Positions 4,390-28,016 of a DNA stretch of 32,000 nt are shown piece after piece. The stretch covers positions 283,640 to 315,639 of the forward strand of contig NZ_JAOVZF010000154.1 in assembly GCF_026337845.1 (NCBI RefSeq), given 5' to 3'. The DNA is from Paraliomyxa miuraensis (GTDB lineage Bacteria > Myxococcota_A > Polyangia > Nannocystales > Nannocystaceae). The position numbers were made by a program, and so were the translations under genes. The notes under the pieces are model-generated. The model made no database searches. It was not told where the DNA came from and saw only the letters and a program-made list of their open reading frames with translations. How positions within the stretch are numbered: position 1 is the first letter of the stretch; every line of letters starts with the position of its first letter.

Positions 4390-5064
4390 CTACCCGTCCT
4401 CGCTCGCCGAGCGCTCGCCCAGCTTCTCGCGCAGCGCCATCGCCCACCGATCCAGATCTCCCGCCGTCGACTCGCGCAGCGCCTGCGGCACCGCCTCGGC
4501 GTGCTCGATCTGCTCCCGCACCAGCCGACGCGCGCGGTGCAGCCGGCTCTTGACCGTACCCGGGGGGATCCCCACCACCACCGCGATGTCCTCCACCCGC
4601 ATCTCTTCCCAATAGTGCAGCTCCACCGCGATCTGCAGATCCACCGGAATGTGCCGCAGTGCGTGCAGCACCAGCCGCTGCTCGTCCTTGCCCGCCACCT
4701 CCAGCGAGGGCGAGCCCAGCACGTCGGCCACCGAGGTCTCGAGCTCCACCACCGGCTTGTCCTTGCGCGCGTGCTTGCGCAGGTGCATCAGCAGCTGCGT
4801 CCGCGCGATCGCCAGCAGGTAGGTCTTGAAGCTCGCCTCCCCACGAAAGCGGTGCACCCCGTCGGCGCACGCGAGCATCGTCTGCTGCACGAGATCCTCC
4901 ACCCCGTGACCGACCTTGGAGCGGAAGAACCGAAACAGCGTGCGAAAGTGCCGACGCAGCAGCCGCGATCCCGCGTCGTTGTCCCCCGCCCGCCAGGCCT
5001 GCAGCAGCTGCACGTCGTCTTGCACGCGATCGCCACGGTACCAACGCCCGGGCCCATCGGCCAT
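4390..5064 (-). CDS. RNA polymerase sigma-70 family ECF sigma factor
   Basis: Region 2: DLVQQTMLACADGVHRFRGEASFKTYLLAIARTQLL. Region 4: VELHYWEEMRVEDIAVVVGIPPGTVKSRLHRARRLV. ATG at 5064 lies inside a 13-bp repeat. There is a ~35 aa C-terminal tail after region 4. Confidence 0.9.
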   Translation of the reverse strand: MADGPGRWYRGDRVQDDVQLLQAWRAGDNDAGSRLLRRHFRTLFRFFRSKVGHGVEDLVQQTMLACADGVHRFRGEASFKTYLLAIARTQLLMHLRKHARKDKPVVELETSVADVLGSPSLEVAGKDEQRLVLHALRHIPVDLQIAVELHYWEEMRVEDIAVVVGIPPGTVKSRLHRARRLVREQIEHAEAVPQALRESTAGDLDRWAMALREKLGERSASEDG

Positions 5065-5106
5065 CACCACCGCCCATCACCACCGCCCATCACCACCGCC
5101 CATCAC
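5062..5106. repeat. 13-bp direct tandem repeat catcaccaccgcc x3 plus a 6-nt partial copy
   Basis: Exact copies at 5062-5074, 5075-5087 and 5088-5100, and a partial copy at 5101-5106. The repeat contains the kinase stop codon (TGA, 5092..5090) and the sigma ATG (5064..5062). Confidence 0.95.
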
Positions 5107-8100
5107 GGCGCTTGGGCCCGTCCTCCAGGCAGAACAGGTGGCGATCGTGCCCGGCCACGAACACCTCCGCGCGCCCGTCCCCGTCCACGTCGGCCACCAC
5201 CGGCGAGGCCTCGACCTCCTCGCGACCGGTCTGGAACCGCCACCGCAGCGCGCCATCTCGCGCGTCCACCACGTGCAGCGATCCGTCCTCGAAGCCCGCC
5301 ACCACCTCGGCCGCCCCGTCGCCGTCGAGATCCGCCACCACCGGCGAGCCGGCCGCCGCAGGCTGCAGCCCGTCGACGTCGCGAAAGCCATACTCCCAGC
5401 GCACCCCACCGTCGCCGGACAGGCCCACGATCCCCCGCGAGGCGCTCGACAGCAGCACCTCGGGCCGGCCATCGCCGTCCACGTCGAGCACCTCCGGTCG
5501 CGCACGCCGGGTCGCCACCCCGGGCCAGCGCGCGTGCTCCCGACCGTCGCGTCCCCGCAGCACCACCAGCGGGTCGTCGTCCATGTGCGGCGTGACGAGG
5601 AGCTCCGGCGCCCCGTCGCCATCGAGATCGGCCACCGTCGGCTGGAAGTTGAGCCGCCCACCGGTCTGCGTGGCCCAGCGCTCCTGACCCGTCGACGACA
5701 GGCAGATCACGCGACCATCGAGCGAGGCCACCACCACCTCGGCCTCCCCGTCGCCGTCCACGTCGCCCACCCAGGGCGCTCCAAAGGCCCCCAGCGGGCC
5801 GAGTGCGGCCGACCAGCGCAGCGCGAGCGACTCGCCGTCGAGCACGTGCACCTGCCCTGGATCCTCCCAGGTCGCCACCACCACCTCGGGTCGTCCGTCG
5901 CCGTCCACGTCGCCCACGGTGGGGCTGGCGTAGGCCTCGCCGGACTCGAACCGCCCCACGAGCGCGGCATCGGAGCCGCGAAAGCGACGGACGCCGCCCG
6001 AGCCCATCGCCAGCAGATCGAAGCCGCGGCCCCGGGGCAGCAGCGCCGGCGGGCGGATCACGATCGGCGTGTCCCCCGGCGCGCTCGAGGCCCGAAGCTC
6101 CCCCGTGCGCGCATCGACCAGCTCGAGCCGATTGGCATCATCGAGCGGGCCGAACAGCGCCAGCTCGAGGGCTCCATCGCCGTCGAGGTCGGCCACCACC
6201 GGCGTGGCCCGGATCGCATCGAGCGGGCGTCGGTCCCAGCGCACCTTGGGCCCCACCACCACGGCGGGACCGCGCGCTTCCATCAACAGATCCACGAACC
6301 CATCGCGGTTGGCGTCACGACTGGCTTCGATCGCGCTGACCGGAATCCGCAGCGGCACCGCCCCCAGCGGGCGGGCGTCCAGGTCGAACGCGCGCAGCAC
6401 TCCATCGCGGGTGCCGAGCACGAGATCGTCGCGCCCGTCGCCGTCCCAGTCGGCCACCACCACCGGTGAGCTGCCGCCAGCCTCGAGCTCGCCACGCGCA
6501 TGCACGGCACCAGAGGCCGCATCGAGCAGCTCGAGCGCGTGCACGCCGTCCATCGCCGAGACCGTGGCCACCAGCGGCCGCGGTCGCGCGCGCAGCAACC
6601 ATGCCGCCGCGCCACCGGGGCCTCCGGTGCCGTACGGTCGGGTCCAGCGGACCTCGCCACCGCGACCGGACAACAGCCCCATCGTCCCGGACCCATCCCC
6701 GCCGCGCCTCCCCGTCAGCAGCACATCGTCGGCACCATCGCCATCCACGTCGACCAGCGCCTCGGACGACACCACGGCCAGCCCATCGAGCGGATGCCGC
6801 CAGCGCTCGCGACCGTCGACCCCGCCCAGCGCCACCAACGACCACCGGCCGGCATCCTCCGCACCGGCCTCGCCCTCGCTCACCGGCACCAGCAGATCCT
6901 GGCCGGGAACCTCGTCGATGCGAGCCGTGCCCACCCAGCCGTGGGCCTGCTCCTGGGCCCGCGAGAGCGCCTTCACCCGCTCGGGGTCGGGCTGCAGCGG
7001 CCCCTCGTCGCCAGCGACCACCGGCAGCGGCGTCGACCAGCGCAGCGTTCCTTCGGCCGACAGCCCATGCACTCCGTGCAAGCCCACCACACCGAGCGCC
7101 GGCGCGGACCCGTCGGCGGACCCTTCCAGCGTCACCACCGTGAGCGGCTGATCATCGGCCATCGCCCACGACCAGCGCTGCGAGCCCTCGCGACCATGCA
7201 GCGCCACCACCTCGCCAGGTCGCAGCCCCGCCACCACCACCGTTGCCTCGCCGCCCTCCGCCGCCGGCAGACACACCACCTCGCCCAGCCCCAGCCCCAA
7301 CCCCGGCTCCGTCCGGCCCGCCCACGACTCATCGATCGCCACCCGCGGCTCGGGACGGCGCGAGCGCGAGGCACCATCGAAGATCCGAAGTCCCGCCGAC
7401 GCCTCGTCCTGGTGCAGCGCAATCACGTCGCGCACCCCGTCGCCATCCACGTCGCACAGCCGATAGCGAGCGCTCGGCGACAGCGCCACCCGCCACAGCT
7501 CGCGATCGTTCCAGGGGTCGTAGGCGGTCAGCAGCAAGAAGCGCCGCTGCACCAGATCGTCGAGGCCGTCACCGTTGGCATCGCCCAGCCACCGCGCCTC
7601 GAGCCCCGCCCCCGACGCCGGCCGCGACCACCAAAGCGCCTTGCGCAGCGACACGAACCCGCGGCGGGTCTCCCCCGCCCGCACCGTCCACTGCAGGCGC
7701 TCGTCCACGTAGCCCTCGTGCCGCAGCAGCAGCTCGTGCACGCCCGTGTCGACGGCCAGCCCCTGCAGGCGCGAGCCATAGTCGACCCCGTCCACCAGCA
7801 CGTGCCCCCCCGAGGGCTCGAGCTCGAGCTCGAACGTGCCCTGCTCGTGGCGCAGCTCCACCGCGAACTCGTGCACGCCTCCCCGCTGCACGTCGACCAC
7901 CGCCTCGGTCGGCTCGTGGTCGGGCGCCGTCACCCGCACGCGGTGCAGACCCACCGCCACCTCGCCCCGTCCGTTCGTCAGCACCTGGTCGTCCACGGTC
8001 ACCGAGGCACCGGGCACCGGCTGGCCGCCCGACACCGCGCTCACCATCACCTGGCCGGGACGCGTGGCCACGTAGGCCGCATAGGCCAGCGCCGCCACGC

Positions 8101-9268
8101 CCACCGGCACCGCGGCCCGCGTCACGAAGCGACGCACGCGACGCGCCGGATCGGCTCGCAGCGCCCGCAGCAGCTCGTGCATGCTCCCGTGACGCTGCGC
8201 GGGATCGGTCTGCAGCCCCCGCAGCACCACCCGCTGCACCCAGGCCGGCACGCGCGTATCATCGGGAACCGGCCGCGGTCGACCGGCGCTCTTGGAGACG
8301 AGCAGCTCGTCCACATCGCGCCCCTCGAACGCATGCCGCCCGTAGAGCGCCCGGTAGAGCGACGCACAGAACGCGAACTGATCCGCCTTTCGATCGGCCG
8401 CCTCACCACGGTGCTGCTCGGGCGCCATGTAGGCGGGCGTGCCGAGCAGCATGCCGGTTCGCGTGAGGCGATCGAGCGCCTCGGAGACCTCGAACGAGCC
8501 GTTCCCCGTGGACGTCGGCGAGCCCGGCTCCCACGAGCCCGGCTCGAACGAGCCCTCGCTCGCCCCGTAGGTCAGCGCCAGCCCGAAGTCCACCACCTTC
8601 ACCGAGCCGTCGTCGCCCACGAGCACGTTGCTCGGCTTGAAGTCGCGGTGCACCACGCCCGCCGCGTGCGCGGCCGCGAGCCCCTCGCCGGCCGCGAGGA
8701 ACCGCTCCACGATCTCGCGCCAGCCGGGGCGCTCGCGCTCGAGCCAGGCGCCGAGGTCGTGGCCCTCGACCAGCTCCATCACGATGAACACGCCCGCGCC
8801 CGTCCCCTGGGCGCCGCCTGGCTCGAGCCCCTCGCACGCCCCCGGCTCGAGCGATCCAGCCGAGTACGTACCCACGTCGTACACCGCGATCACGTTGGGG
8901 TGCGACAGGCGGGCGATCGACTGCGCCTCGCGAACGAAGCGCGCCCTGGCCCGGGCCACCGCGTCGGCCTCGCGCCACCCCGACCGGAGCACCTTGATCG
9001 CCACGCGGCGGGCGAGCTCGGGATCATAGCCGTCGTAGACCACCCCCGCCCCGCCCGACCCCAGCGGCCGCAGCAGCAGGTAGCGCGACAGTCGAACCGG
9101 GTCCCGCACCCGCGAGAACAGCCGCGCCTCGATCTGGGCCAGCGCCTGCCGCTCCTCGAGAACGTCCCACTCGTCCGCCCCGTCGAGGGCCCCATCGATG
9201 GCATGTCCGAGGCTGTCGACCGTCTGCACGGTCGCCTCGGGATCCGGCGTGGGTCGATCCACCGGCAC
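5090..9268 (-). CDS. Transmembrane Hanks-type Ser/Thr protein kinase with PEGA-like and FG-GAP/VCBS beta-propeller ectodomain
   Basis: Kinase motifs: GSGGAGVVY, VAIKVL, HPNVIAVYD, VHRDFKPSNVLV, VVDFGLA, GTPAYMAPEQ. TM segment AAVPVGVAALAYAAYVA. Two PEGA-like segments follow. There are at least 12 D-x-D-G-D-G repeats, enough for two propellers. The start is uncertain. GTG 9268 has GGTGGG 9 nt upstream. ATG 9313 would share a CATG with the divergent gene. Confidence 0.9.
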   Translation of the reverse strand: MPVDRPTPDPEATVQTVDSLGHAIDGALDGADEWDVLEERQALAQIEARLFSRVRDPVRLSRYLLLRPLGSGGAGVVYDGYDPELARRVAIKVLRSGWREADAVARARARFVREAQSIARLSHPNVIAVYDVGTYSAGSLEPGACEGLEPGGAQGTGAGVFIVMELVEGHDLGAWLERERPGWREIVERFLAAGEGLAAAHAAGVVHRDFKPSNVLVGDDGSVKVVDFGLALTYGASEGSFEPGSWEPGSPTSTGNGSFEVSEALDRLTRTGMLLGTPAYMAPEQHRGEAADRKADQFAFCASLYRALYGRHAFEGRDVDELLVSKSAGRPRPVPDDTRVPAWVQRVVLRGLQTDPAQRHGSMHELLRALRADPARRVRRFVTRAAVPVGVAALAYAAYVATRPGQVMVSAVSGGQPVPGASVTVDDQVLTNGRGEVAVGLHRVRVTAPDHEPTEAVVDVQRGGVHEFAVELRHEQGTFELELEPSGGHVLVDGVDYGSRLQGLAVDTGVHELLLRHEGYVDERLQWTVRAGETRRGFVSLRKALWWSRPASGAGLEARWLGDANGDGLDDLVQRRFLLLTAYDPWNDRELWRVALSPSARYRLCDVDGDGVRDVIALHQDEASAGLRIFDGASRSRRPEPRVAIDESWAGRTEPGLGLGLGEVVCLPAAEGGEATVVVAGLRPGEVVALHGREGSQRWSWAMADDQPLTVVTLEGSADGSAPALGVVGLHGVHGLSAEGTLRWSTPLPVVAGDEGPLQPDPERVKALSRAQEQAHGWVGTARIDEVPGQDLLVPVSEGEAGAEDAGRWSLVALGGVDGRERWRHPLDGLAVVSSEALVDVDGDGADDVLLTGRRGGDGSGTMGLLSGRGGEVRWTRPYGTGGPGGAAAWLLRARPRPLVATVSAMDGVHALELLDAASGAVHARGELEAGGSSPVVVADWDGDGRDDLVLGTRDGVLRAFDLDARPLGAVPLRIPVSAIEASRDANRDGFVDLLMEARGPAVVVGPKVRWDRRPLDAIRATPVVADLDGDGALELALFGPLDDANRLELVDARTGELRASSAPGDTPIVIRPPALLPRGRGFDLLAMGSGGVRRFRGSDAALVGRFESGEAYASPTVGDVDGDGRPEVVVATWEDPGQVHVLDGESLALRWSAALGPLGAFGAPWVGDVDGDGEAEVVVASLDGRVICLSSTGQERWATQTGGRLNFQPTVADLDGDGAPELLVTPHMDDDPLVVLRGRDGREHARWPGVATRRARPEVLDVDGDGRPEVLLSSASRGIVGLSGDGGVRWEYGFRDVDGLQPAAAGSPVVADLDGDGAAEVVAGFEDGSLHVVDARDGALRWRFQTGREEVEASPVVADVDGDGRAEVFVAGHDRHLFCLEDGPKRRDGRW

Positions 9269-9311
9269 GGCGTCGCGCCCACCGTTGTACCACGCGGCTA
9301 TGCTCCACCGC

Positions 9312-10421
9312 ATGACCACCAAGATCGACGCGCTCGTGGTGGGCGCCGGGGTCATCGGCCTGGCCATCGCGCGGGCGCTCGCCCTCGCCGGCCGCGAGGT
9401 CGTGGTGATCGAGCGCGAGGGCGCCCCGGGCCAGCACACCTCCTCGCGCAACAGCGAGGTGCTCCACGCCGGGCTCTACTACCCCCCCGGCAGCCTCAAG
9501 GCGCGCCTGTGCGTGGAGGGCCGCCGCGCGCTGGTGCGCTACTGCGAGGCGCGGGGCGTGGCGCATCGCGTGCTCGGCAAGCTGGTCGTGGCCACCACCG
9601 AGGCCGAGCGACCCGCCCTGCGTCGGCTCCATGCCCAGGCCCAGCACAACGGCGTGGTCGACCTTCGCCCGCTGTCCGGCCCCGACGTCCGCGCGCTCGA
9701 GCCCGCGGTGCGGGCGGTCGAGGGCCTGTGGTCTCCGTCCACCGGCATCGTCGACGCGCACGCGCTCATGCGCGCGCTGTGGGCCGATGCCGAGCAGGCC
9801 GGAGCCATGCTCGCGCTGCACACCACGCTCGTGCGGGCTCGCGTGGAAGACGACGGCCTGCGCGTGTGGGCCGGTGACACAGAGCTGAAGTGCCAGCGCT
9901 TGATCAACGCCGCCGGCCTGCTCGCGCCGAAGGTCGCCCGCACCATCGAGGGCTCGCCCCTCGAGCGCGTGCCCCGGTCGTACCTGCTCAAGGGCAGCTA
10001 CTTCGCGCTGACCGGCCCCGCCCCGTTCTCCCACCTGGTCTATCCCATGCCCGACGCCACCACGCTCGGGATCCACGTCACCCTCGATCTTGCGGGTCGC
10101 GTGCGCCTGGGTCCCGATCGACAGTGGGTCGATCGCATCGACTACACCGTCGATCCCGAGCGCGCGCCGGCCTTTGCCCGTGCCGTGTCGCGCTACTACC
10201 CCGCGCTCGACCCCGCCGCCCTGCAGCCCGACACGGCCGGGATCCGCCCCAAGCTCCACGGCCCGCCGGGTCCACCCCCCGGCACCACGCCCGACTTCGT
10301 CATCGAAGGCCCCGCCGAGCATGGCGTGCCCGGCCTGTGCCATCTCTACGGCATCGAGAGCCCGGGTCTCACCGCCTGCCTCGCGATCGCCGACGAGGTC
10401 CTGCGACGCCTCGGCGCCTGA
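9312..10421 (+). CDS. FAD-dependent oxidoreductase, L-2-hydroxyglutarate oxidase/dehydrogenase (LhgO)-like
   Basis: N-terminal dinucleotide fold DALVVGAGVIGLAIARAL..VVVIE. The segment HTSSRNSEVLHAGLYYPPGSLKARLCVEG..LVVATTEAE closely parallels E. coli LhgO as I recall it. The C-terminus has YGIESPGLTA. Alternative ATG at 9300. Confidence 0.85.
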   Translation: MTTKIDALVVGAGVIGLAIARALALAGREVVVIEREGAPGQHTSSRNSEVLHAGLYYPPGSLKARLCVEGRRALVRYCEARGVAHRVLGKLVVATTEAERPALRRLHAQAQHNGVVDLRPLSGPDVRALEPAVRAVEGLWSPSTGIVDAHALMRALWADAEQAGAMLALHTTLVRARVEDDGLRVWAGDTELKCQRLINAAGLLAPKVARTIEGSPLERVPRSYLLKGSYFALTGPAPFSHLVYPMPDATTLGIHVTLDLAGRVRLGPDRQWVDRIDYTVDPERAPAFARAVSRYYPALDPAALQPDTAGIRPKLHGPPGPPPGTTPDFVIEGPAEHGVPGLCHLYGIESPGLTACLAIADEVLRRLGA

Positions 10422-10547: not shown

Positions 10548-11282
10548 ATGTCGGACCAACCGCGAAACCACTGGGGAGTGCTGCTTGCCGTCGTTGCGGC
10601 AGCCGACGGCGTGCTGGGCTACCTCGCGGCGACCACCCAGGACACCAACCTCCAGGCCATCCTGGCGATCGGGGCCATCGCCATGCTGCTGGTGTGCCTG
10701 TGGGTCGTGGTCAAGCTCGGCCAGCCCCGGCGCACCAGTGACGACCCCTCCCCGATGCCCGGGCCCGTCGACCCCGGCCCGTCGCTCGAGATCAAGTACG
10801 ACCTCTACATCAGCACCCCCATGGATGGGCTCGCCCAGCCGGCCTACGATCAGCACCGCGAGCAGATCCGCAGCCTCATCGAGATGCTGGAGGCCGGCCG
10901 GATCACGCGCATCGCCTGTCGCATCAAGGAAGTCGCTCACGGGGCGACCCAACCCACCGACGTCGCGCTCGAACGCAACCTCCGCAGCATCCGCCAGAGC
11001 CGGGTCCTGGTGCTGGTCATGCCCAACCGCCGCAGCAGCAGCGCCCTGGTCGAGGTGGGTGCCGCGCTCGCGATGGGCAAGGTGGTGTTCGCGTTCGTCG
11101 CCAGCCGGCTCGACAACCTGCCGTTCCTCATCCGCAGCAGCCACCACCAGCCCAACGGCGCAGCCGGGCCCATCAACCTCAAGACCTATACCTACGGGTC
11201 GATGGACGACATCTCGCGCCACATCCTCGACAACCGGCACCTGATCTTCGGTCAGCCCACGCTCCCACCGTCGGCCGGGTAG
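10548..11282 (+). CDS. Two-TM membrane protein with cytoplasmic TIR / nucleoside 2-deoxyribosyltransferase-like (Rossmannoid) domain
   Basis: Two hydrophobic helices at aa ~9-29 and 37-56. These are followed by YDLYISTPM (first strand), helices, then SRVLVLVMPNRRSSSALVEVGAALAMGKVVFAF. The last segment matches the NDT/TIR-type strand - Ser/Asp loop - conserved Glu - GK pattern, with Glu169 at nt 11052-11054. Stop TAG at 11280-11282 lies 2 nt before the next ATG. Confidence 0.7.
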   Translation: MSDQPRNHWGVLLAVVAAADGVLGYLAATTQDTNLQAILAIGAIAMLLVCLWVVVKLGQPRRTSDDPSPMPGPVDPGPSLEIKYDLYISTPMDGLAQPAYDQHREQIRSLIEMLEAGRITRIACRIKEVAHGATQPTDVALERNLRSIRQSRVLVLVMPNRRSSSALVEVGAALAMGKVVFAFVASRLDNLPFLIRSSHHQPNGAAGPINLKTYTYGSMDDISRHILDNRHLIFGQPTLPPSAG

Positions 11283-11284
11283 GC

Positions 11285-13873
11285 ATGGGGCTCGAGCACG
11301 GCCGCACGTATCGGGCGCGGGTCACCATGCTCAGCATCGAGGCCCGCGACCGCGAGCTTCCGTTCGTGCTTCGCCGCGGCGACTCCCTGGGCGAGGGGGC
11401 GCAGGCATGGGTCTACAAGATCTACCAGGTCGACGACGATCCCAGCCGCGACTCCGAGGACGATCCGACCTCCGACGAGCAGCCACCCGGACAGTCGGGC
11501 TCCAACGACCGACGGTCGAGCTTCGGCCCGCCCGCCCAGGCCGGTCCCGACTCGTCCGCCGCCCCCACCCTGCGCTGGTTCGCGCTCAAGCTGTTCAAGA
11601 CCGACGACGAAGGGGCCAAGCGCGAGAGCCACATCATCCGCTCGCTCGGGGACGACGACGGCGTGATCCGCTTTCACGCCGAGATCGAGCTGTGGCTGCC
11701 CGCCATCGGCACGCGGGTGGGCCTGGTCACCAACTACGTCGCGGGCGAGAAGCTCTCGGACGTGCTCGACCAGCGGCGGCTGCGGCCGAGCGAGGCCGAG
11801 GCGCTGGGCCTGCGCTTGCTCGAGACCCTCGAGGCGATCCATGGACGCGGGGTCCTCCACACCGACATCAAGCCGGCCAACATCATCATCCCGCAGGAGG
11901 GCAACGCGCTGCTGTTCGATCGCGCCGTGCTGCTCGACTTCGGCCACGCCCACCGCGACGACCAGCCCTACGAGCACGCGCGCGGGACCCCCTTCTACAA
12001 GCCACGCGCCCCGCAGACCAGCACCACCCACGACTGGCGCAAGCGCGACGTGTTCGCGGTGGGCGTCATCCTCTATCGGTGCCTGGTCGGCGGCTACCCC
12101 TGGGGCACCATGGAGATCCAGGCCGAGGGGGCCGACCTCGCGCGCGTGATCGAGGCCGAGATGGCCAGCCGCCCCATGCGGAGCGTTCGGCCCCAGGACT
12201 GGCCGTGGTGGTGGTCGAGCCGGCGCCTGGCCCACAGCACGCTCGCACGGCTGCTCGGAGGCGGTCACTGGGCGCGGATTCCCTCGGTCGACACCGCCAA
12301 GCGGCTCGTGCGGCTCGGCCTGGGCCCCATTGCCACCGTGGTCAAGCTGCTCGGCGTCGTCCTGATCGCAGCCGTGCTCGTCTCGCTGCTGCTGTGGGGG
12401 TGGAACGCGGTGGGGCCGTGCCCCGAGGGTCGAGCGCGCTGCGACGGCACGTGCATGCCCATCGGCGAGCCATGTCGCGAGGACCAGGATCTGGTCTGCA
12501 CCGCGCAGGGCTGCCAGTGCCCCCCGGGCCTCGCGGGCGTGGCACCGGGCGTGTGCGCCGACACCCAGAGCAGCGCCGAGCACTGCGGAGGCCCGTACCT
12601 GCCGTGCGCCGAGCCCCGCACGTGCCACCAGGGCCAGTGCCGCTGCGACGACGATCAGATCTACTGCGAGGACGAGTGCAAGAGCAACAACGATCGCTTC
12701 TTCCTGCGGCCCGAGCACTGCGGTGCATGCGACGAGCGCTGCACCGCGGACGAGATCTGCCACCACGGCCAGTGCCGTGATGCCTGCGAGGCTCGGGGGC
12801 TCGCGCGGTGCGACGGGGACTGCAAGGCGCTGGCCTCCGACGGCGACCACTGTGGCGAGTGCGGCAACGACTGCAAGAATGGCCGCGCCTGCGTGGCCGG
12901 CACGTGCACCTGCGCGGCTGGCCTCGTGGAAGCCAGCGACGGCTGCGTCGACCCCCGCTCGAACCCGCTCGCATGCGGCGACCCACCCGTGCCCTGCAAG
13001 GACGGGCAGCTCTGCGACGACGGAACGTGTCGAACCACGTGTGGGGGCAGCGAGCTCGAGTGCGCGGGAACCTGCATCGACCCCAAGACCGACGATCGCT
13101 TCTGTGGTGCGAAGGATTGCCGCGACCCCAAGCGATCGGGGGTCGCATGTGGCCCGGGACAGTCGTGCCGCAAGGGCAAGTGCGTGCTCTCGTGCCCCGC
13201 CTCGCAGATCGACTGCAACGGCCGCTGCATCGATCCCGGCACCGACCACCAATTCTGCGGCGCGGCCCCGGGCTGCACCCACGGGCGCGCCTGCGGCTCC
13301 ACCGAGCAGTGCGTCGGTGGTACGTGCACCACCACGTGCGCCCCCGACGAGCTCGTCTGCGGGGGCCACTGCGTGGACCCCCGTCACCACCCCACCTGGT
13401 GCGGCGTCACGGGCCGCTGCGAGGAAGCCACTGCATGCGGGGCCGACGAGCTGTGCGACCAGGGTCGCTGCCGGCCCCGCTGCCCCGCCGGGACGCTCCG
13501 CTGCGACGCCACGTGCGTCGACCCTCGCTCCGACGAGCACTGCGGTCGCCAGGCGTGCCCCTCCGGCTCCGCCCCACCGGTGTGCCGCGGCGGATCGCAC
13601 TGCGTCGAGGGCGAGTGCGTCTACGCGTGTCCCCCGGGGCGGCTGCTGTGCAACGACCGCTGCATCGATCCCGACTCCGACCCCGAGCACTGCGGAGCCG
13701 AGGAGCGCTGCACGACCGAGGGCGAGCGCGGCCGGGCCTGCACCGCAGACCAGCGCTGCGAGCACGGCGAGTGCAAGGACGTCCCGGGCCTGACTCCGCC
13801 GCCAACGACCACCGGAGGCACCACCGGGGGCACCACCAGCGACGCCACCACCAGCGGCGAGCCCCAGCCCTGA
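11285..13873 (+). CDS. Transmembrane non-RD Ser/Thr kinase with about nine cysteine-rich extracellular repeats
   Basis: Kinase motifs: LGEGAQAWVY (G-loop), WFALKLF (Lys), KRESHII (Glu), LHTDIKPANIII (HTD instead of HRD), LLDFGHA, DVFAVGVILYRCLVGGYPW. TM segment VVKLLGVVLIAAVLVSLLLWGW. This is followed by modules such as RCIDPGTDHQFCG...C..G.C and a Thr/Gly-rich tail. Alternative start at ATG 11327. Confidence 0.85.
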   Translation: MGLEHGRTYRARVTMLSIEARDRELPFVLRRGDSLGEGAQAWVYKIYQVDDDPSRDSEDDPTSDEQPPGQSGSNDRRSSFGPPAQAGPDSSAAPTLRWFALKLFKTDDEGAKRESHIIRSLGDDDGVIRFHAEIELWLPAIGTRVGLVTNYVAGEKLSDVLDQRRLRPSEAEALGLRLLETLEAIHGRGVLHTDIKPANIIIPQEGNALLFDRAVLLDFGHAHRDDQPYEHARGTPFYKPRAPQTSTTHDWRKRDVFAVGVILYRCLVGGYPWGTMEIQAEGADLARVIEAEMASRPMRSVRPQDWPWWWSSRRLAHSTLARLLGGGHWARIPSVDTAKRLVRLGLGPIATVVKLLGVVLIAAVLVSLLLWGWNAVGPCPEGRARCDGTCMPIGEPCREDQDLVCTAQGCQCPPGLAGVAPGVCADTQSSAEHCGGPYLPCAEPRTCHQGQCRCDDDQIYCEDECKSNNDRFFLRPEHCGACDERCTADEICHHGQCRDACEARGLARCDGDCKALASDGDHCGECGNDCKNGRACVAGTCTCAAGLVEASDGCVDPRSNPLACGDPPVPCKDGQLCDDGTCRTTCGGSELECAGTCIDPKTDDRFCGAKDCRDPKRSGVACGPGQSCRKGKCVLSCPASQIDCNGRCIDPGTDHQFCGAAPGCTHGRACGSTEQCVGGTCTTTCAPDELVCGGHCVDPRHHPTWCGVTGRCEEATACGADELCDQGRCRPRCPAGTLRCDATCVDPRSDEHCGRQACPSGSAPPVCRGGSHCVEGECVYACPPGRLLCNDRCIDPDSDPEHCGAEERCTTEGERGRACTADQRCEHGECKDVPGLTPPPTTTGGTTGGTTSDATTSGEPQP

Positions 13874-13927: not shown

Positions 13928-14413
13928 ATGCCGCTCTACCCCCTGGCCATCGGGCTGACCATCCTCGCCAACGTCGGCTACCACCTGTGCCAGAAGGCGA
14001 TCCGCCCCGACGTCAGCCCGGCCGCCTCGCTCGTGGTCACCTACGCGGTGGCGCTGGTGCTGTCGCTGTTGCTGTGGCCGTGGCTCGGCGGCGGCGAGGG
14101 CATGACCGTCGCGCTCCGCCGCCTCGGCCCCGCCACCTATGCCCTCGGCGCCGCGGTGGTGCTCATCGAGCTGGGCTTCTTGCTCGCCTACCGTGCCGGC
14201 TGGACCCTCGGCGTGGCCGCGCTCTACTGCAGCGCCGCGGTGGCGCTGGTGCTGGTGCCGGTCGGCATGCTCGCGTTCGGCGAGACCCTCGATCTGCGCA
14301 AGGGCGCGGGCCTGCTGCTCGCGCTCGCCGGCCTGCTGCTGCTCACCGAGCCCCGCGCCTCCGCGGGCGAGCCCACGGAGGCGCGAGCCGGGGAGCGCAA
14401 CCCCGGCCCGTGA
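13928..14413 (+). CDS. Small EamA/DMT-like integral membrane protein
   Basis: 161 aa with 4-5 hydrophobic helices (LAIGLTILANVGYHL, ASLVVTYAVALVLSLLLW, ALGAAVVLIELGFLLAY, ALVLVPVGMLAFGE, GLLLALAGLLLL), resembling half of an EamA transporter. The exact family is not certain. Confidence 0.65.
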   Translation: MPLYPLAIGLTILANVGYHLCQKAIRPDVSPAASLVVTYAVALVLSLLLWPWLGGGEGMTVALRRLGPATYALGAAVVLIELGFLLAYRAGWTLGVAALYCSAAVALVLVPVGMLAFGETLDLRKGAGLLLALAGLLLLTEPRASAGEPTEARAGERNPGP

Positions 14414-27937: not shown

Positions 27938-27943
27938 ATCGGG

Positions 27944-28016
27944 TGGAGGATAGCGGGATCGAACCGCTGACATTCGGCTTGCAAAGCCGACGCTCTCCCA
28001 GCTGAGCTAATCCCCC
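27944..28016 (-). tRNA. tRNA-Ala (anticodon UGC)
   Basis: The minus strand folds as GGGGGAT TA GCTC AGCTGGGA GAGC G TCGGC TTTGCAA GCCGA ATGTC AGCGG TTCGATC CCGCT ATCCTCC A. The cloverleaf is complete (73 nt), the anticodon is TGC, and the G3:U70 alanine identity pair is present. CCA is not encoded. Confidence 0.95.

Follow-up and report, generated by a model that had tools for sequence, protein, structure and literature searches.

A membrane-anchored protein of the nucleoside deoxyribosyltransferase superfamily encoded next to a Cys-rich receptor-type kinase in Paraliomyxa miuraensis

Two adjacent genes of Paraliomyxa miuraensis (Myxococcota, genome about 70% GC) are described here, which lie in a 32,000-nt stretch of DNA that we call the window. 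The first, open reading frame (ORF) A, encodes a membrane protein whose cytoplasmic domain has the fold of the nucleoside 2-deoxyribosyltransferase (NDT) superfamily, and the second, ORF B, encodes a membrane Ser/Thr kinase with a Cys-rich ectodomain. We propose, with a confidence that stays somewhat short of even, that the two genes, and possibly a third one, constitute a kinase-coupled, membrane-anchored nucleotide N-glycosidase module of Paraliomyxa and its close relatives. The fold of ORF A is established, and the pair is confirmed as real: its adjacency is not due to chance, and it is confined to three related lineages, Paraliomyxa and close relatives. In the larger family to which ORF A belongs, the recurrent partner is another gene, encoding a CinA/PncC domain.

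Fold and active site of ORF A

A hypothetical protein of P. miuraensis matches ORF A at 100% identity. The GC content at third codon positions is 0.92 for ORF A and 0.91 for ORF B, values of the coding type, and no other ORFs of this kind are present at these positions. Hydropathy placed two hydrophobic helices at residues 9-30 and 32-60. In an AlphaFold2 model, built from a 55-sequence family alignment (mean pLDDT confidence score 84.2), these helices span residues 8-29 and 33-58, and are followed by an alternation of strands and helices from residue 84 to 234. The two N-terminal transmembrane helices that a preliminary description had read from the letters of this DNA are thus borne out by both approaches. 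The same description had named YDLYISTPM as the first strand of the cytoplasmic domain; YDLYIS is modelled as strand 84-89, and the other segments it had named as strands are modelled as strands too. VLVLVM forms strand 151-158, SALVEVGAALA helix 165-175 and VVFAF strand 179-185. The linker between the hairpin and the domain varies across the family alignment, and its residues 62-76, modelled as disordered, have a pLDDT below 50. Position 20, in the first helix, is Glu in 33 members of the alignment, Gln in 8 and Asp in 3.

The best Pfam model for ORF A was PF05014 (Nuc_deoxyrib_tr; E=5e-6, 27.1 bits), just below its gathering cutoff of 28.8 bits, and PF15891 (Nuc_deoxyri_tr2) gave 20.8 bits, below a threshold of 30. 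These sub-threshold scores indicate that the family is a divergent branch outside the curated models. When a profile of the 55 members was compared with all PDB sequences, BcmB (4e-7) and MilB (9e-7) were the best matches. A Foldseek search with the ORF A model gave 14 matches at E<=1e-3, every one of them an NDT, DNPH1, BcmB or MilB structure, with target TM-scores of 0.59-0.79; the top match was the NDT 8pqr (E=4e-5). Profile and structure comparisons therefore agree on an NDT-type protein. The fold of ORF A is that of the NDT superfamily, closest to the nucleoside-5'-monophosphate N-glycosidases MilB, BcmB and DNPH1, and ORF A is best regarded as belonging to a divergent branch of this superfamily that is anchored to the membrane and has gained a conserved two-transmembrane (2TM) hairpin.

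A TIR/NDT-like fold had been suggested at first, and only the NDT half of this suggestion holds. TIR was rejected as the primary class of ORF A, as no TIR profile matched at E<=10 and EcThsB came only at rank 36 of the Foldseek matches (E=6e-3). The Rossmannoid fold of TIR NADases (ThsB, TIR_2) is distantly related and does carry a catalytic Glu, but the NDT-type matches of ORF A were consistently stronger. Identity with SLATT or another known 2TM effector was rejected as well: neither TIR, SLATT nor any other curated 2TM-effector profile matched ORF A in Pfam at E<=10, and PADLOC gave no match.

ORF A has several features in common with the MilB/BcmB/BlsM group of CMP (hmCMP) N-glycosidases and with DNPH1 (Rcl), in addition to the fold itself (Foldseek E=1e-4 to 5e-4, target TM-scores up to ~0.8). 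These are the aligned nucleophile Glu, a loop with Ser, alike in sequence, 4-6 residues before this Glu (at this place S97/G99 of MilB and S98 of DNPH1 hold the 5'-phosphate), an N-terminal (F/Y)-x-x-x-P-x motif, and a C-terminal '(D/N)-x-(P/A)-(F/Y)-L-(L/I/V)' element (LPFLIR in ORF A, NYAYLIRG in BcmB). However, the characterised enzymes are soluble dimers of 120-190 residues, acting in antibiotic biosynthesis or nucleotide-pool sanitation, whereas ORF A carries the conserved hairpin. It also lacks an equivalent of Arg23 (Asp93 in ORF A, Ala in most of the family), and its identity to these enzymes is just 17-21%. The class I and II NDTs matched by PF05014 (Lactobacillus, Chroococcidiopsis) have their catalytic Glu at the same position, and 8pqr belongs with them; ORF A differs in falling below the Pfam cutoff and in being anchored to the membrane. 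True NDTs bind the sugar hydroxyl of the nucleoside by means of an Asp placed six residues ahead of the Glu. ORF A has a Ser at this place, like the nucleotide-specific enzymes and unlike the NDTs.

The catalytic residue itself could be assigned by alignment. With HMMER, Glu169 of ORF A (codon GAG, 11052-54) is aligned with the wild-type Glu of MilB and BcmB, and with the residue substituted in MilB E103A (chain 4ohb), an Ala. Since the substituted Ala shares its column with an invariant Glu, we take E169 as the counterpart of the MilB nucleophile E103, which is E104 in DNPH1. The Glu had been singled out beforehand as a likely catalytic residue, and it is present in 55 of 55 diverse family members. 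With a mean column identity of 28%, the invariant positions of the alignment are E169, G171, A173 and P192, and those conserved at 90% or more are F87, P91, M92, S151, P159 and L191.

The other active-site positions were compared one by one with MilB and DNPH1. At position 87, Phe is found in 53 of 55 members and Tyr, as in ORF A, in 2; P91 is kept in 53 and M92 in 54. MilB F17 and DNPH1 Y24 act as a ribose versus deoxyribose switch, and MilB F22, to which M92 of ORF A is aligned, stacks on the base (PMC4081090, PMC10603095). The column of the general acid, which in DNPH1 is D80 (PMC10603095), contains Asp in 34 members, Asn in 18, Ala in 2 and Val in 1, and ORF A has Asn. Because the 17 further members with Asn are mostly outside the kinase-linked clade, N144 is not a clade-specific inactivation. 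In the loop preceding E169, position 164 is Ser or Thr in 54 of 55 members and position 165 is Ser in 49, while Ser at 163 occurs in just 2, a correspondence with the MilB loop that holds for sequence only. In MilB, S97 and G99 bind the 5'-phosphate and E103 is the nucleophile (PMC4081090). Eight residues are also missing, in the clade of the window, from the loop which bears MilB E62 and DNPH1 H56, involved in base recognition. From these alignments, the substrate of ORF A is likely to be 5'-phosphorylated. Its base specificity cannot be carried over from either MilB or DNPH1.

ORF B and the conservation of the pair

ORF B is an ordinary Hanks-type, non-Arg-Asp (non-RD) kinase. Residues 103-281 align with Pfam Pkinase PF00069 (76.4 bits for a cutoff of 31.7), and matches to kinases of the PDB reach E=2e-12. 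As the Pfam alignment starts at residue 103, corresponding to profile position 31, K102 (in 'WFALKLF') is the presumed beta3 Lys. After its orthologues, the database proteins closest to it are ordinary kinases of myxobacteria (~31-39% identity). Comparison with defence kinases gave 75 bits for PD-T4-6 and 69 bits for mad6, which reflects the generic catalytic core only; scores were far below the NCBIfam equivalog thresholds (53 versus 460 for MAD6, 44 versus 990 for PglW), and none of the other genes of PD-T4-6, MADS or BREX is present at the locus.

The preliminary description of ORF B as a membrane kinase with a non-RD loop and a Cys-rich ectodomain was accurate: the catalytic loop reads HTD, there is one transmembrane helix, and the ectodomain contains 74 Cys in 490 residues, in a 'C[IV]DP' repeat register. 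The ectodomain matched NF041328 (MXAN_6577-like Cys-rich) at 224.2 bits for a cutoff of 100, in 6 stretches, and Stig1 six times. The predicted structure of ORF B, obtained from a 2-sequence alignment, has a pLDDT of 34, and the transmembrane helix is the sole segment modelled with confidence. An imperfect 24-nt tandem repeat is found at 11431-11476, within or at the edge of the acidic insert of the kinase.

The pair had been expected to be syntenic in related genomes, and the same gene order indeed recurs in two further lineages, L001 and L023/L024, each time with a gap of 1 nt, as compared with 2 nt in the window, where the spacing is as first described. L001 is a 4.2-kb contig of a Joint Genome Institute (JGI) metagenome. 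Its NDT-like protein (P0002) has 60-62% identity to ORF A, and no other close homologue turned up in the word-indexed database; its kinase, starting 1 nt after the NDT-like gene, has 54% identity and comprises the acidic insert and a transmembrane helix, together with the first part of a Cys-rich region. Upstream, this locus differs from the window by an amidohydrolase gene on the opposite strand. L023 and L024 are two Logan assemblies of one lineage, in which the C-terminus of the NDT-like protein is 77% and the kinase 58% identical to their window counterparts. The junctions are TGA-C-TTG in L001 and TGA-A-TTG in L023/L024, so that both kinases start with TTG, and no purine-rich Shine-Dalgarno stretch is visible upstream. 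The translation of these two kinases plausibly depends on gene A, given such starts.

Among the three orthologues, the HxD motif, K196, N199, DFG and the DWPWWWSSR motif are invariant, and the catalytic loops (HTD, HAD and HGD) are all non-RD. The acidic insert varies in its sequence as well as in its length, and is a series of SDERP repeats in L001. The L024 kinase (L024:257-1399) stops a few residues past its transmembrane helix and has no Cys-rich ectodomain. At the presumed beta3-Lys position, L024 and L023 (L023:384-1001) both have a Glu, in independent assemblies, and the kinase of this lineage may be a pseudokinase. The ectodomain is dispensable, as one orthologue lacks it, and the extracellular sensing that had been put forward is not a conserved feature. 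The kinase ectodomain, and possibly the phosphotransfer chemistry, are therefore not the conserved core of the partnership.

In L024, an orthologue of the 161-residue multi-transmembrane protein encoded after ORF B lies 12 nt past the kinase stop. At 58% identity, compared with 77% for the NDT-like protein and 91.5% for this third protein, the kinase is the fastest evolving of the three-gene syntenic block. The 161-residue protein is far more conserved than the ORF A/ORF B pair (91.5% identity to its L024 counterpart), and neither Pfam nor PADLOC gave a match for it. It may or may not be a member of the module.

A salt bridge between D20 of ORF A and a Lys or Arg at the start of the kinase transmembrane helix was considered and rejected, on the grounds that the basic residue lies at the cytoplasmic interface and that the acidic residue of the first helix is conserved also in family members without a kinase. 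Table 1 gives the coordinates of all features.

Table 1. Coordinates of the features of the pair, of the gene that follows it, and of the CinA-linked loci of the wider family (window positions unless a locus is named)
Feature	Coordinates	Strand	Description
ORF A	10548..11282	+	244 residues (P0001); membrane-anchored NDT/MilB-like predicted N-glycosidase; hypothetical protein of P. miuraensis
Two-helix transmembrane hairpin	10569..10721	+	Residues 8-29 and 33-58; acidic residue D20 mid-membrane
Pro/Asp-rich linker, low confidence	10722..10793	+	Residues 59-82, between hairpin and catalytic domain
Cytoplasmic Rossmannoid NDT/DNPH1/MilB-like domain	10794..11249	+	Residues 83-234
First-strand motif Y87-I-S-T-P91-M92	10806..10823	+	Counterpart of MilB F17-L-G-G-P21-F22; aligned to BcmB 'VFLAAPF'
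Asn144 codon	10977..10979	+	Column of general-acid Asp (MilB D78 / DNPH1 D80)
Ser163-Ser164-Ser165 loop and Glu169	11034..11054	+	Aligned with MilB S97-P98-G99 and E103
Gene junction	11280..11287	+	TAG-GC-ATG; stop TAG 11280-82, ATG at 11285, gap 2 nt
ORF B	11285..13873	+	862 residues; bitopic non-RD Hanks-type Ser/Thr kinase with Cys-rich ectodomain
Kinase domain	11372..12184	+	Residues ~30-300: G36-E-G-A-Q-A-W-V, K102 (presumed beta3 Lys), E114, H192-T-D194, K196, N199, D218-F-G220
Acidic low-complexity insert, hypervariable	11432..11575	+	Residues 50-97, between Gly loop and beta3
Trp-rich juxtamembrane motif (Q/R)DWPWWWSSR	12194..12223	+	Residues 304-313; D305-R313 invariant in three orthologues
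Kinase single transmembrane helix	12323..12412	+	Residues ~347-376 (hydropathy)
Extracytoplasmic Cys-rich region	12413..13870	+	MXAN_6577/Stig1-like repeats (about six); Thr/Gly-rich tail
Downstream gene	13928..14413	+	161-residue multi-transmembrane protein; syntenic; possible member of the module
CinA-linked loci	L002:5959-7110; L008:1028-2253; L018:3-972; L020:362-1665; L030:3059-4309	same strand	CinA/PncC-domain gene downstream of NDT-like gene

The wider family and its recurrent partners

A HMMER search of 1.84 billion cluster representatives (50% clustering) gave 478 representatives of the family at E<=1e-3, 89 of which were at E<=1e-10. Members are mostly 230-270 residues long, match over both the transmembrane region and the soluble domain, and come from genomes of 37-70% GC. 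At least two transmembrane segments were found upstream of the domain in 88 of the 145 top matches carrying the Glu motif. Among the 55 aligned members, PF05014 was matched at E<0.01 by 30 (best E=1e-6), TIR_2 weakly by 1 and ThsB weakly by 2; beyond these two ThsB matches, PADLOC recognised none of the 55.

Genomic contexts were sampled by genome, metagenome and exact-protein look-ups, and flanking genes were annotated by tblastn and with Pfam and PADLOC. The genome pattern search used a narrow back-translated pattern from 12 sequences, and its yield of 3 genome and 13 metagenome loci is not a frequency estimate. The word-indexed homologue search gave 4 matches with the family alignment and 6 with the kinase, which limits the context sampling. 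Downstream contexts were counted over 19 loci with readable downstream sequence, excluding the three kinase-linked lineages.

In 6 of these 19 loci (the contig of P0006, L008/9, L018, L002, L020 and L030), a stand-alone gene for a CinA/PncC domain (PF02464, nicotinamide mononucleotide [NMN] deamidase) lies directly downstream of the NDT-like gene, on the same strand. CinA/PncC is the commonest partner of the 2TM-NDT family, and a recurrent one. The six loci cover 38-70% GC and different phyla: L002, for instance, is from Streptomyces sp. NBC_00133 (65% GC), and L020 is at 38% GC. Gene coordinates were called in three of these loci, where the distance from the NDT-like gene to CinA ranged from -14 to +27 nt. 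On a neighbour-joining tree, which is poorly resolved, CinA-linked members are scattered, and the nearest neighbour of the kinase clade, P0006, is itself CinA-linked.

No kinase was found adjoining, or fused to, any sampled family member outside the clade formed by the three lineages. A partnership with a kinase, which could have been thought a property of the family, is therefore restricted to three close lineages. It is a rare, lineage-specific variant, in which the kinase lies in the slot that CinA occupies elsewhere. In the window, neither a CinA gene nor a second NDT-like copy is present.

Other arrangements were also found. NDT-like genes are duplicated in tandem in L004, L006, L015 and L022, and in P0003 (L025:1180-5739) two complete 2TM-NDT units are joined in one protein. 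The gene of P0003 is followed by genes for a 306-residue reverse transcriptase, a S-adenosylmethionine (SAM) methyltransferase and a radical-SAM protein. Membership of a retron was examined for this locus and is not supported: the reverse transcriptase scored 177 bits with a generic model and only 31.5 bits with the retron model RT_IX, and neither a retron noncoding RNA nor any other Rfam noncoding RNA was detected in L025. The NDT-like domain is fused to TIR_2 in P0065 and P0107, to lipase-like alpha/beta hydrolases of the DUF676/PGAP1 type in P0075, P0152 and L015:1222-2319, and to a Trans_reg_C winged-helix domain in P0143; all these fused versions are without the 2TM hairpin. Among the neighbours of family members are NB-ARC/NACHT NTPases of the STAND class, a PIN protein and a reverse transcriptase, as well as an adenosine deaminase (upstream, in L016) and a NUDIX gene (nearby, in L030). 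Fusions and some neighbours thus look conflict-like, while CinA, adenosine deaminase and NUDIX look metabolic.

In the searchable literature, whose coverage is incomplete, no description was found of the 2TM-NDT family, of its link with CinA or of the pairing with a kinase, and nothing relevant was found on a connection of CinA and NDT-like proteins with either defence or membrane anchoring. Nor was the ORF A/ORF B architecture found to be described in PADLOC or NCBIfam.

Proposed mechanism, alternatives and genomic surroundings

If the pair is a kinase-coupled N-glycosidase module, ORF A would work at the inner face of the membrane, where it would split the N-glycosidic bond of a nucleotide carrying a 5'-phosphate. 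As to the class of substrate, a pyridine nucleotide of the NMN/NAD (nicotinamide adenine dinucleotide) type seems to us the best guess. This guess would account for the fact that the family can dispense with the general-acid Asp (Asp or Asn), as a nicotinamide leaving group needs no protonation. It is also suggested by the NMN deamidase domain of the recurrent partner CinA/PncC, by the fusion of some members to TIR domains, and by the existence of a NDT-fold enzyme hydrolysing NAD(P)+ in Retron-Eco1, a precedent for a NADase of this fold in conflict systems (PMC12673091).

The short junctions (1-2 nt), the TTG starts of two orthologues and the missing Shine-Dalgarno stretch suggest that ORF B is made by termination-reinitiation, so that the two proteins would be synthesised in nearly equal numbers and would meet in the membrane. 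In the Paraliomyxa clade, the kinase would have taken the place of CinA and would control the N-glycosidase, through phosphorylation or else through stoichiometric binding within the membrane. One kinase orthologue has no beta3 Lys, so that binding may be sufficient by itself. A kinase-substrate relationship between ORF B and ORF A is pure inference. The output may be the depletion of nucleotides or NAD, as for a conflict effector, or else a signal molecule, or a regulated salvage.

Several observations weigh against this proposal. ORF A scores below the Pfam gathering threshold, Asn144 replaces the general-acid Asp, Met92 stands where MilB has the base-stacking Phe22, and the base-recognition loop of the ORF A clade is shortened by 8 residues, so that ORF A may differ from the MilB and DNPH1 models in its catalysis or its substrate. 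The link with CinA concerns the family, and not the kinase-linked clade, where CinA has been lost from the slot. The Glu found at the beta3-Lys position in L023/L024 argues against phosphotransfer being a conserved, essential activity. Finally, myxobacteria encode very many kinases, so that the attachment of one of them could be a lineage-specific regulatory addition of modest significance.

A second account, which we judge unlikely, makes the pair an effector of conflict or abortive infection. The kinase would sense a cue in the envelope or outside the cell (phage, competitor toxin, non-kin contact) and activate a toxic enzyme destroying NAD+ or nucleotides, possibly together with a membrane-disrupting 2TM module, with dormancy or death as the end. 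NDT-like N-glycosidases are proven effectors of type II retrons, acting as NAD(P)+ hydrolases (PMC12673091, PMC7736814). In the family, the fusions to TIR and DUF676/PGAP1-type lipase domains, the STAND NTPases, PIN toxin or reverse transcriptase adjoining some members, the tandem duplications and the conserved polar or acidic residue of the first helix all go in this direction. So does the fast evolution of the kinase (58% identity, versus 91.5% for the neighbouring protein), together with its hypervariable inserts and the variation of its ectodomain. Architectures joining a transmembrane module to a nucleotide-processing domain recur in TIR/2TM/SLATT conflict systems, and ORF A is similar to them, but its locus contains no cyclase or signal-generating partner gene. 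Type II retrons (Retron-Eco1/Ec86, Sen2) also have a NDT-superfamily effector, held in check by a partner, where the partner of ORF A is a kinase. However, PADLOC gave no retron-effector match for ORF A, and since neither a winged-helix domain nor a retron-type reverse transcriptase is present, ORF A is not a type II retron effector.

The role in defence, kin discrimination or cell death proposed at first has found no direct evidence. PADLOC did not recognise ORF A, and within the family only the two weak ThsB matches were obtained. A tblastn search of phage and plasmid collections and a scan of viral contigs gave no homologue. The genes around the pair do not form a defence island, as judged from Pfam scans of the neighbouring ORFs, in which no reverse transcriptase, methyltransferase, ThsA or other defence-partner gene was found. 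Also speaking against a conflict effector are the orthologue devoid of ectodomain, the lack of an evident immunity or antitoxin gene, and the nature of the commonest family partner, CinA, a salvage enzyme.

This last point leads to a third account, housekeeping salvage, which we regard as improbable. ORF A would be a membrane-associated nucleosidase of NMN or nucleoside monophosphates working with PncC, and placed here under the regulation of a Ser/Thr kinase, as is much of myxobacterial metabolism. It fits with the CinA/PncC gene that adjoins the NDT-like gene downstream in 6 of the 19 informative loci, in different phyla, with the adenosine deaminase upstream in L016 and the NUDIX gene near in L030, and with the fact that the closest characterised relatives are metabolic N-glycosidases. 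But the distribution appears patchy (3 matches in 185,579 species genomes, with a narrow search pattern), TIR or lipase fusions and STAND neighbours are atypical of salvage genes, and the conserved 2TM hairpin with its intramembrane acidic residue is left without explanation.

It is very unlikely, in our view, that ORF A is not an enzyme at all, its NDT-like domain being a nucleotide-binding sensor or scaffold that acts on the kinase (or pseudokinase), by regulating or localising it, instead of serving as its target. The loss of the general-acid Asp in the window clade and the deletion in the substrate-gating loop would be understandable in such a case, and the kinase orthologue deprived of its beta3 Lys would mean that the conserved feature may be a complex, and not an enzymatic cascade. 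Related Rossmannoid SLOG domains are known to sense ligands in ThsA (PMC11204291). Against a non-catalytic role, the Glu nucleophile, G171, A173 and the Ser-Ser loop have been kept over 55 members at 28% mean identity, and Asn144, being shared with 17 other members, does not mark an inactivation proper to this clade.

That two unrelated membrane proteins merely happen to share a transcript is hardly credible, in spite of the density of kinases in myxobacterial genomes, of another large kinase encoded 1 kb upstream and of the absence of a kinase link in the wider family, given that gene order and 1-2 nt junctions are kept in three lineages at 54-77% identity with differing upstream flanks, and that two kinase orthologues start with TTG without a visible Shine-Dalgarno sequence.

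Returning to the kinase-coupled N-glycosidase module, a bolder version of it may be formulated: a Cys-rich receptor kinase, fast-evolving and exposed at the surface, would directly gate a membrane enzyme cleaving NAD+ or NMN, and the 2TM-NDT family would be a new class of pyridine-nucleotide-targeting effectors, with CinA as the ancestral partner. We hold this version as quite unlikely. If it were true, such a pathway from receptor kinase to nucleotidase could serve phage defence, kin discrimination or developmental lysis in a social myxobacterium.

In any case, ORF A and ORF B form a clean and testable candidate for the direct coupling of a receptor-type Ser/Thr kinase to a nucleotide-cleaving enzyme. 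The larger point is probably the family itself, a sizeable and unannotated set of membrane-anchored MilB/DNPH1-like proteins with an invariant Glu and CinA/PncC as recurrent partner. This pattern, with TIR and lipase fusions in other members, suggests that an enzyme of pyridine-nucleotide turnover has so far gone unrecognised. The family could be a conflict module centred on NAD/NMN, or it could contain the gene behind a nucleotide nucleosidase activity.

The genes surrounding the pair in the window are unremarkable, and encode a flavin adenine dinucleotide (FAD)-dependent oxidoreductase, a membrane protein, a PD40 protein, HlyD/MacB proteins, and a large FG-GAP kinase with an extracytoplasmic function (ECF) sigma factor. 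The large kinase, encoded ~1 kb upstream of the pair in the minus-strand stretch 4390-9202, is a Ser/Thr kinase of ~1370 residues with PEGA, FG-GAP and PQQ-like beta-propeller regions. Its gene is directly upstream of the same-strand ECF sigma factor gene (4390-5070), and divergent from that of the FAD-dependent oxidoreductase (9198-10421).

Further downstream, the segment 23000-28016 has a GC content of 0.61-0.65, compared with ~0.70 elsewhere in the window, and ends at a tRNA-Ala(TGC) gene (27942-28016, minus strand). Nearly all of its ORFs are without a Pfam match, one of them having a weak match to the Receptor L domain. This segment may be an integrated element.

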